Made by a program: the position numbers and the translations under genes. Under the pieces are notes generated by a model. It did no database searches. It had not been told where the DNA came from and saw only the letters and a program-made list of their open reading frames with translations. A stretch of DNA of 64,000 nt, from assembly GCA_030390025.1 (NCBI GenBank), contig CM059432.1:52950001-53014000 (forward strand), in the 5' to 3' direction. Shown here in pieces: positions 25,701-28,700 of the stretch. Position 1 is the first letter of the stretch, and every line of letters begins with the position of its first letter. The stretch comes from Squalus acanthias (lineage: Eukaryota).

Positions 25701-28700
25701 CTTGCCATTTCATCTTCTATGTATTTCTTGATCATAGCAACAGCTACAGTTCTATCTAGCTTCGAGATAGGAATGGTCTTCACCTCATCATACAAAGCTT
25801 GGGGTTCCTTTGGGGGAGGGAAAAATAAAATGTCTTACTGAGTTACAGTCACTTATTTTCCATCACCTCCTTTGCATACTTTAACCAAAGTTAGTGGGCC
25901 AGTTTAACACCCTTCCTGATTTGACTTCCATGGAGAGTAAAATGAGGCGAGGTGTAAAATGGGCAGCCAACCCAATCCCATCAGTTTACCGCAGGGTATA
26001 GGTTAGGTTAAAATTACCCATGTTTAGATCTTGTAGTGGCAAGCCCAGTGGAACTGTGCCTTACACCCATTTTATTTTGGCAAAACCTTTGCAGTCATAT
26101 AAATGTATGTATGATTACTGTACCTCAGGTGTGCTTTAACCAATGCCGTTTTAAATTTTGTTTTACCTAATAATTGTCAGTTCCACAAATTGCTTCTTCC
26201 ACAGGATTTGGCGCAGGGATAGCACTGGTCTGCACACTGCCAGTGAAATACAGTGATAAAGTCCCACAGAGGAACCCTGCATTTCTCATCTGCTTAGAGA
26301 GGATAGGCAGATTGAAATAGTGAAACCTGTAAATTACAGACACCTAAGGGATGGCATCAGCTGTCCTCATTTTCAAAATGGTCATTGAATATACTGACAG
26401 CTGCTGCAGGGGAGATTCAAACCCCGGATACTGGCAGGGATTGTGGCTGCAGGGGTGATTCAAACCTCGCTACATGCAGCTACAGCGGCTGCGGGGGGGG
26501 GGGATCAAACCGCGATACAGGGACAGCTGCCACAGGAGGGGATTCAGCCCACGATACCAGCTAGGACAGCAGCCCCCGGGGGGGTGGGGGGCGGAATTCA
26601 AACCCCAGAACCCCAGATACTGACATGGACAAAAAGGAATCCAGTAAACAGTCCAGCAGTCATCACGATCTTCAGACTCAGATACAGTACATACTTTGAA
26701 CATTTTAATGCGTGACGTCAGGCTTTGTCCCATGTTTGAAGGTATAAAAGGCTGCCCGTAGTTCGGAATTTGCGAGTATCCGTGGTTTCAGAGTGCCTCT
26801 TGTATCTTTTACAATGCAAGTTATTTGGAGCTGTCAATCATTGTCCGTTTTTTGCAGGTGTCCATTTATAAAGTTTCATTGTACGTCTTTATCCAATACT
26901 AAACTTAGTTACTAGGTAAGGAAACTTGTGGATCTGTCGGACATTCAGCACTTTATCCAATTCAAGAATGCAGTTATGACTCCTCCTCAAATAACTCTGC
27001 CAGCCCAAGATTGTTCAACTTTCACCCTTTACAGTTTCATGCTTTCACTACCTGGTAAACGGATGCAGTCATTGGCATAAGGCTGATGCTGTACAGCAAT
27101 GGTCTACAAACGTTTCTGTGTAGTTAACATTCTCAGGGACCCCCCATACCAACGTCCATAAGAAAGCCTCAGTTATCTAAAAGGAAGTTGTGGTAACACA
27201 ATACAGCTTCCTGTGACTCGAACTTTATTGCATCACTTCCTGTGATTAGTCCAGGATAAATACTGGACTGATCAGTTGGATCCTGGAGAGGCATAGAGTA
27301 AGACCTCTTTTGTATGTAGCACCTTTTTAGTTGATTAAAGCTTACTTTAAGTTCACCACGCGTAAGGCTCATTCTTACGACAATTTAATCAACTTTGGAA
27401 AACTTCGCACTCAAACTTTTTGGACGAACTCGGAACTAAGGATCCAGGGAATCACCCATCATGGAAAACATCCTTAAACCATCGCGTCTTGACTTGGACC
27501 CAAACACCCCAGCAGCCGGTAAGGTGTGGAAACACTGGTATCGCACGTTTGACAATTTTCTTGAATACTGCAAGGCTGATGATGACTCAAAGTTGCGGAT
27601 ACTCATCAACTGTGTCACCCCGAATGTATTTCAGTATGTGGAGGAATGGGACAGTTACGAGGAGGCAATTCGGACGCTGAAGAGACTATATACTAAGACA
27701 CCGAATGAGGTCTATGCCAGACATCTACTAGCTACAGCCCAACAAGGGCCGGAGGAATCCATTGATAAATTCCTCCAAGAGCTTCGCAGACTTAGTATGG
27801 ACTGTAACTTTCAGGCGGCCTCAGCTGAGCTGTACCGTGAAGAAATGATCCGTGATGCTTTCATCTGCGGGCTTGCCTCCCCATTTATACGCCAGCGTCT
27901 ACTGGAAAGTAAGACACTTGAGCTTCAGAGAGCTTATGACATGGCTTGCTCTCTAGATCTGGCAAAAAGAAATGCAGACCTTTATACAGTGCCCAGACCT
28001 CGGTCTACTGCACTGCCTTAACTACAGTCAGGCAATTTAAGAGGCCACAGGTGAACTCTATTAGGGAGGTCTTTATCCCTGATGATCAATCTGATGACTT
28101 CACTGATGAAGAGGATGATGACCCCACTGTGGCAGCCTCTTGGCAATCTAAGAAATGCTTCTTTTGTGGTGATGAGTTTCACCCTCGGAAATTCTGCCCT
28201 GCTCGCAATGTGTTTTGCAGTCATTGCAACAAAAAGGGTCATTTTGCAAAGGTTTGCCTATCAAGAGCCTCTACGAGGGCTTATCAAGCTAAGTCCTATC
28301 GTGCTTCCTCTCGGGTTTCTTCTCGAAGAAACACACCTAGAGTTTCAGCCACTCTTTGTGCAACGACACCAATTACAGCTGCTTGTCCTCAGAACCTATT
28401 CCATGCAGCTACAAAAGCATCAATTAATGGACATACTTTAGATGCCTTAATTGACTCAGGTAGCACTGATAGTTTCATTAGGGAACAGATTGTTGCAGAG
28501 TTAAAGCTACATGTTTTCCCATCGGACCAGGCAATTGCGATGGCTCAGTCATCACTTAATACCAGAATTTCTGGCTTTTGTATGGTTGAAATAACACTTA
28601 ATGGTCACAGGTATCCCTCCACCCGGCTTTCGGTGCTCAAGGATTTATGTAGTGATCTTATCTTAGGGCTGGATTTTCAAAAGCAGCATAAGAAGCTCAC

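Follow-up and report, generated by a model that had tools for sequence, protein, structure and literature searches.

How does an LTR retrotransposon begin reverse transcription when no tRNA-type primer-binding site follows its 5′ LTR? The question is raised by an element in the genome of Squalus acanthias, which we analysed within a 64,000-nucleotide stretch of DNA (the window). The element spans 27189–31587 on the + strand (4,399 bp), the strand of all its features given below, and belongs to a young family of which it is a damaged copy. Direct sequence comparison revealed the left target-site duplication GAAGT at 27184–27188, and its right counterpart lies at 31588–31592. The 5′ LTR (27189–27382, 194 bp, TG…CA) and the 3′ LTR (31394–31587) are identical at 193 of 194 positions, with a single difference, and a polypurine tract (31376–31393) lies ahead of the 3′ LTR. 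These hallmarks and the order Gag-PR-RT-RH-IN without env define a Ty3/Gypsy LTR retrotransposon, and the best solved relative of the element is the Ty3 RT (E 7e-52).

The coding region of the window copy is split in four by frame changes and one stop. The first piece carries the N-terminal part of Gag (27461–28021), with the ATG at 27461 in a frame open from 27440 and an early frame end. A second piece in a different frame (27940–28851), terminated by the stop, contains two zinc knuckles of the CX2CX4HX4C type (28156–28197 and 28216–28257) and the aspartic protease. RT, RNase H, and the integrase zinc finger follow at 28852–30354, and the integrase core occupies 30368–31372, again in a different frame and without a chromodomain match. 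Stop-free frames of >1,190 codons were found in three of the eight other family copies checked. Outside the element, the window contains short interspersed repeats and a 48-nt inverted pair (34084–34338, 34911–35020, 21758, 35663–35842, 37095).

A sequence-only reading had claimed that the 5′ LTR is followed by no TGG-type site and that the element instead primes itself by an 11-nt self-complementarity. The first TGG is indeed found 13 nt beyond the end of the LTR (27396–27398). A one-base spacer, A (27383), separates the LTR from the putative primer-binding position TTTAATCAACT (27384–27394), which is predicted from complementarity: it is the exact reverse complement of AGTTGATTAAA at 27329–27339 within the 5′ LTR, the predicted 3′ part of the self-primer, and a second copy of this segment resides in the 3′ LTR. 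The initiator-like TTAGTT described in the same reading is also present (27327–27332). When the LTR was shuffled with its dinucleotide composition preserved, 5 of 20,000 trials yielded a segment able to pair over 11 nt with the bases that follow the LTR. The predicted fold of 27329–27400 has an energy of −15.4 kcal/mol (z −3.1), which weakens to z −2.5 to −1.3 when more flanking sequence is folded, and no Rfam match was found within 27000–27700. Beyond the earlier reading, we observed that the last six bases of the paired LTR segment are the poly(A) signal ATTAAA (27334–27339) and that a small hairpin, GCTTA-CTT-TAAGT (27340–27352), starts at the first base past it.

Covariation of the LTR match was examined among relatives. 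For these, we used 80 metagenome loci with Gag proteins 36–58% identical, together with two families from the same genome. We excluded seven loci with too short upstream sequence, L105 and L106, which have no anchor motif, and the duplicate L033; L143 and L144 were excluded as positive controls because their LTRs are incomplete. The remaining loci form 35 family groups, each scored by its best copy, a choice that flatters the wobble-free count. A perfect complement of 11–18 nt in the same register occurs in 28 of the 35 groups, comprising 23 distinct 11-mers. The complement measures 14.5 nt on average within a family compared with 5.4 nt across families, and the cross-family pairs that reach 11 nt (22 of 756) all fall among groups sharing one common 11-mer. 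Counted singly, 48 of 73 metagenome loci passed, whereas none of the 278 control stretches taken from the ORF did, and many of the failing loci sit in groups where another copy passes.

The geometry is fixed as well. All 28 groups have the order CA, 1 nt, site, and the spacer base is A in 26 of them. The spacer forms an inward Watson-Crick pair in none of the 28, and the loop varies from 24 to 87 nt. Across the 405 Watson-Crick pairs, scored in one best copy for each group, the pairing never resumed for three or more pairs beyond a wobble or mismatch. Elements of the same genome that we take to be of the Mag type, from their RT and PBS motifs, carry TGG sites and show a self-complement of at most 4–6 nt (7 loci). 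A fixed host primer cannot produce this pattern of covarying 11-mers in a fixed geometry. Self-priming, as the sequence-only reading had suggested for the single copy, thereby gains strong support from complementarity that is kept while its letters differ.

The failing groups are heterogeneous. L048 has a 12-nt match in a 3′ LTR at the contig end; L065/66, L073/74, and L098–100 show no match to the Gag start; and the complement is only 8–9 nt in L089 and L101/110. L035 (1–130), a close relative (70% RT identity) with an intact-looking start and post-CA bases that begin TACATTC, has no complement in its contig and is possibly an exception or an element with an unassembled LTR part. Around the Gag start of L073/L074, a reversed RNase H-coding sequence directly before the primer site replaces the LTR, a single event that is possibly a strand-switch product.

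Judging from these comparisons, the lineage very probably self-primes its reverse transcription, and the 5′ LTR copy of the element's own segment is the probable primer of minus-strand DNA. The position, complementarity, covariation, fixed inner boundary, and adjoining hairpin are the observed basis of the mechanism that we propose. The stretch of RNA derived from the 5′ LTR would pair with the site, 44 nt farther downstream, and the folded RNA would be cut after ATTAAA (27339/27340), where the small conserved hairpin begins. By analogy to Tf1, in which RNase H makes the cut, RNase H may cut here as well, the new 3′ end may be extended through the spacer and on into U5, and the resulting strong-stop DNA, about 44 nt long, may be transferred to the 3′ end of the RNA. 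The primer site would then be re-copied from the primer in every cycle, which would explain the wobble-free covariation. The same fold would hide the 5′ poly(A) signal, likely as a second role.

The hairpin adjoining the paired segment lies at the predicted cut. Starting at the first base past the paired segment, a hairpin of at least 4 pairs is found in 21 of 28 groups compared with 15% in the null, and its mean of 4.1 pairs against 2.5 exceeds all 2,000 shuffled sets. It typically reads RCC…GGY, and in the window copy GCTTA/TAAGT, a change on both arms; it is often closed by G-U/G-T pairs. This conserved hairpin is a new observation here and likely marks the cut site, where the 3′ end of the primer must form. 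The U5 hairpin formed by CGTAAG (27361–27366) and CTTACG (27374–27379), to which the sequence-only reading had pointed, exists in the window copy and in the sister family L114 but is not enriched clade-wide (p=0.24). Neither is a duplex between leader and loop, as in the "pretzel" of Tf1, enriched across the clade (p=0.42); hence the three-duplex structure of Tf1 is matched only partly.

Where the RNA starts bears on which part of it could serve as primer. An AG stands at the initiator-like register in 19 of 28 groups, which favours a role for the initiator-like A. In these 19 groups, however, the pairing continues for a mean of 2.9 nt 5′ of the A, compared with 0.5 nt for swapped partners (0 of 20,000 permutations), indicating that the pairing RNA usually extends beyond that A. 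A splice-acceptor reading of the T-rich AG was considered and is not needed, as the pairing crosses the AG unspliced. TATA-like motifs lie 74–90 nt upstream of the segment in three families of this genome and in none of the other families. The window copy has the candidate promoter GATAAATA at 27255–27262, and TATAAATA is found in a similar context in the sister families L111 and L112, with a spacing that is not identical to that of the window copy. With the usual TATA-to-start spacing of 25–30 nt, the start would be near 27285. Assembled contigs from four presumed RNA runs display neither a start nor an end nor a poly(A) junction, which carries no weight, since contigs do not reveal starts. 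The TATA-like motif of the window copy also lies within a loop whose flanks, TCCAG/CTGGA (27250–27267), form a short inverted repeat, and L111 and L112 have GAGTA/TACTC across theirs. A strictly Tf1-like primer, made up of the first 11 nt of a transcript beginning at 27329, is consequently doubtful on the sequence patterns; the primer may instead carry a 5′ tail.

A different source of the same primer is the alternative that survives best, although we consider it unlikely. Here the primer would be the segment copy near the 3′ terminus of either the same RNA or one packaged with it, after trimming or cutting past the hexamer, with transcription starting at or after 27340 and the segment lying in U3, for which the short-R retroviruses RSV and MMTV set a precedent. 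Pairing past the initiator-like A would be allowed whatever the start site, and the base after the paired segment, a purine in 28 of 28 groups (G in 23, A in 5), is a plausible start base. If the 5′ copy is transcribed, however, the local fold with its 44-nt loop (−15 kcal/mol) should win, and cutting the 3′ copy at this point removes the 3′ R needed as acceptor.

We looked to the family in this genome for inherited changes that could separate the two copies. A junction pattern counts at least 1,715 LTR-leader junctions of the family in the 3.7-Gb genome, and with the first 372 bp of the element as query the best 40 genome matches were all identical, so that this abundant and young family must have a working primer. 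Two further families of the lineage (L111; L112–L114) share the same 11-mer with 12–13 nt of pairing and account for about 720 junctions by pattern. Among the 1,715 junctions, variants at the one pair tested comprise seven changes in the site, five in the LTR segment, and none in both; one of the five segment variants is changed in both LTRs with the site unchanged. Most of these variants look post-insertion, and re-copying of the site is thus neither supported nor refuted by them. The absence of compensated copies among the 12 variants counts against the 3′ copy in principle, but so few inherited changes at one pair do not permit a choice between the 5′ and the 3′ copy. Three copies without the C of CA, examined as possible fold-back junctions at the site, turned out to be point changes. 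We also noticed three family units arranged in tandem at a spacing of 4,247 bp with identical shared LTRs (G000:C1:566504-575081; L158, L159), and a family copy inserted in reverse within another family copy (L118).

The stem might alternatively regulate the fate of the RNA only, by hiding the 5′ poly(A) signal or gating the nearby start codon, with another primer in use. In 21 of 28 groups the last bases of the paired segment are AATAAA or ATTAAA, its partner arm is present behind the 5′ LTR only, the distance from the site to the start codon is often 15–45 nt, and the polyA hairpin of HIV-1 offers a precedent (PMC2645353; this and all further PMC sources are cited for excerpts of their text). 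Such a stem, however, need not begin exactly 1 nt past CA and would tolerate G-U pairs. It would not be expected to persist in the seven groups without the hexamer, which nevertheless retain the pairing, so that hiding the poly(A) signal is not its only job. As this reading also leaves the family without a primer site, we regard it as improbable, and self-priming remains the preferred reading.

Priming by a host tRNA end or an internal tRNA fragment, with an incidental LTR match, is highly improbable. tRNA priming is the usual Gypsy mechanism, and half-tRNAs are known to act as primers in lineages of Copia (PMC6317226, excerpts), but the site starts with TTT rather than TGG, and each of the 23 different 11-mers matches its own LTR and not the others. 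The best match of the site to 18 host tRNA sequences was 6 nt, in a set covering only Lys, Cys, Thr, and Leu whose positive control had no matching isotype. The TGG at 27396, considered as a displaced tRNA site, gave a best match of 4 nt in the same small set, and its next base varies between G and A among copies. Equally improbable is an action of the inverted repeat in DNA, such as end processing or plus-strand transfer: wobble-free pairing would suit DNA too, but the adjoining hairpin often closes with G-U/G-T pairs, the site is located beyond the integrated LTR, at the place required for primer binding, and no primer is offered.

The sequence-only reading had also described the element as Mag/SURL-like rather than chromoviral in appearance and had called for an RT phylogeny. 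RT-RNase H identity is 55–82% within the lineage, 28–31% to the Mag-type elements, and 26–29% to fungal chromovirus-type proteins. We calculated a quick tree of 50 rows, in which 19 of 69 were left out, partly for redundancy, and a careful tree of 25 rows. Both contain three separate clades, with supports of 100/100 for our own lineage, 100/100, and 99/98 for the chromodomain-type proteins, and they leave the fork between them open. The chromoviruses in the trees are fungal proteins and one amoebozoan protein; the named Tf1, Tf2, sushi, Mag, and SURL are not among the rows. A sister relationship of the lineage to the chromoviruses is not rejected (p-AU 0.476), so that its self-priming may have an independent or a shared origin, and the sister link to the Mag-type group has a support of only 66/5. 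On the RT sequences, the three separate clades indicate that the lineage belongs to neither the sampled chromoviruses nor the sampled Mag-type group. The Mag/SURL-like description holds for the two knuckles only; the RT forms its own clade at 28–31% identity to the Mag type.

As had been claimed, no chromodomain was detected: neither it nor SH3_Tf2-1 matched the four ORF pieces of the window, and a chromodomain was found neither in 3 full-length relatives nor in the precomputed domains of the 120 relatives listed. Two CCHC knuckles are present in 88 of 96 full-length relatives. Named hosts of the protein relatives include shrimp, copepod, soft coral, sea anemone, ascidian, whipworm, catshark, and rays, and the viral and prokaryote collections yielded no relatives. 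Candidate chromoviruses of the Squalus genome selected by SH3_Tf2-1 matches (L121–L130) proved to be endogenous retrovirus-like, nine of the ten with RT. A DUF4939 search of this genome gave none and an RT motif search three stray matches, and no chromovirus was found by these searches.

To our knowledge, self-priming is proven only for Tf1, and it is regarded as characteristic of the Tf1/sushi group. We found no description of it for the present lineage in the open literature; subscription papers, Repbase, GyDB, and the supplements of PMC6238403 lay outside this search. Self-priming in this distinct Gypsy lineage of animals may be a variation on a known mechanism, and a prior mention is possible. 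More tentatively, self-priming could have evolved on its own terms in this widespread non-chromoviral animal lineage, using an internal or 3′ LTR segment that ends at the poly(A) signal and is released at a conserved helix junction; one fold would silence the 5′ poly(A) signal and commit the RNA to reverse transcription, and the site would be rewritten from its own LTR every cycle. If self-priming is true of this lineage, it occurs in a second deep branch of Gypsy elements, present in many animals, and tRNA-free priming either arose again or is old in the Metaviridae, a question that has been raised before (PMC3601003, excerpts). The lineage would also be out of reach of silencing by tRNA fragments aimed at the primer site, which is established for ERVs (PMC7472051, excerpts). 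Natural swaps are at hand in the covarying families, and the fixed position of the predicted cut allows a simple direct test.

In the excerpted literature, self-priming is tied to Tf1/sushi, Tcn1, and some plant Copia elements (PMC6317226, PMC4600332, PMC3601003, PMC6238403, PMC10085805, PMC7175516, PMC3670739, PMC5341516, PMC5006619, PMC8556966). Our lineage resembles Tf1/Tf2 of Schizosaccharomyces pombe, Tj1, Tosmo/Tcry, and the Tf1/sushi group in having no tRNA site and in the pairing of post-CA bases with an LTR segment, as far as the excerpts describe them (PMC7175516, PMC10085805, PMC4600332). Tf1 and the window element both pair over 11 nt and both have a helix beside the predicted cut. 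The three-duplex "pretzel" of Tf1 (PMC10085805, excerpts), however, is matched only partly, and its leader-to-LTR duplex was not found in the lineage. Unlike Tf1/sushi, the lineage lacks the chromodomain/SH3_Tf2-1, and its RT, 26–29% identical to those of fungal chromoviruses, falls outside their clade. Its pairing extends over 11–18 nt and often past the initiator-like A, its segment overlaps the poly(A) hexamer, and its Gag has two knuckles.

With the Mag lineage (A/B/C clades, SURL), our lineage shares a compact single ORF, short LTRs, a 5-bp duplication, and two CCHC knuckles. The Mag-type elements of the Squalus genome differ in having TGGCGACGAG-type sites, whereas the lineage is without a TGG-type site, and at 28–31% RT-RH identity they form a separate clade. 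The lineage could correspond to the Cigr-1 clade, an assumption that we treat as a lead only. Cigr-1 has a single ORF of about 1,210 codons and short LTRs; relatives of the window element, including the ascidian protein P0067, measure 1,170–1,260 aa, a likeness to this general description of Cigr-1 only. The Cigr-1 clade occurs in Ciona and also in molluscs and annelids, and the excerpts of both sources contain no mention of a PBS or of self-priming in Cigr-1 (PMC6238403, PMC8556966). The polyA hairpin of HIV-1 places a stem over the poly(A) hexamer as in our lineage (PMC2645353, excerpts), but in HIV-1 the hairpin forms at both RNA ends and a tRNA primes, whereas in the lineage the primer site itself serves as the partner arm, which is found at the 5′ end only. 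For Tcn1 chromoviruses and the TAR Copia elements (Houba, Osr-1) of plants, which are other lineages in other hosts, self-priming was predicted from LTR complementarity alone, according to the excerpts (PMC6317226), and these predictions suggest that the trait recurs outside the Tf1/sushi group.
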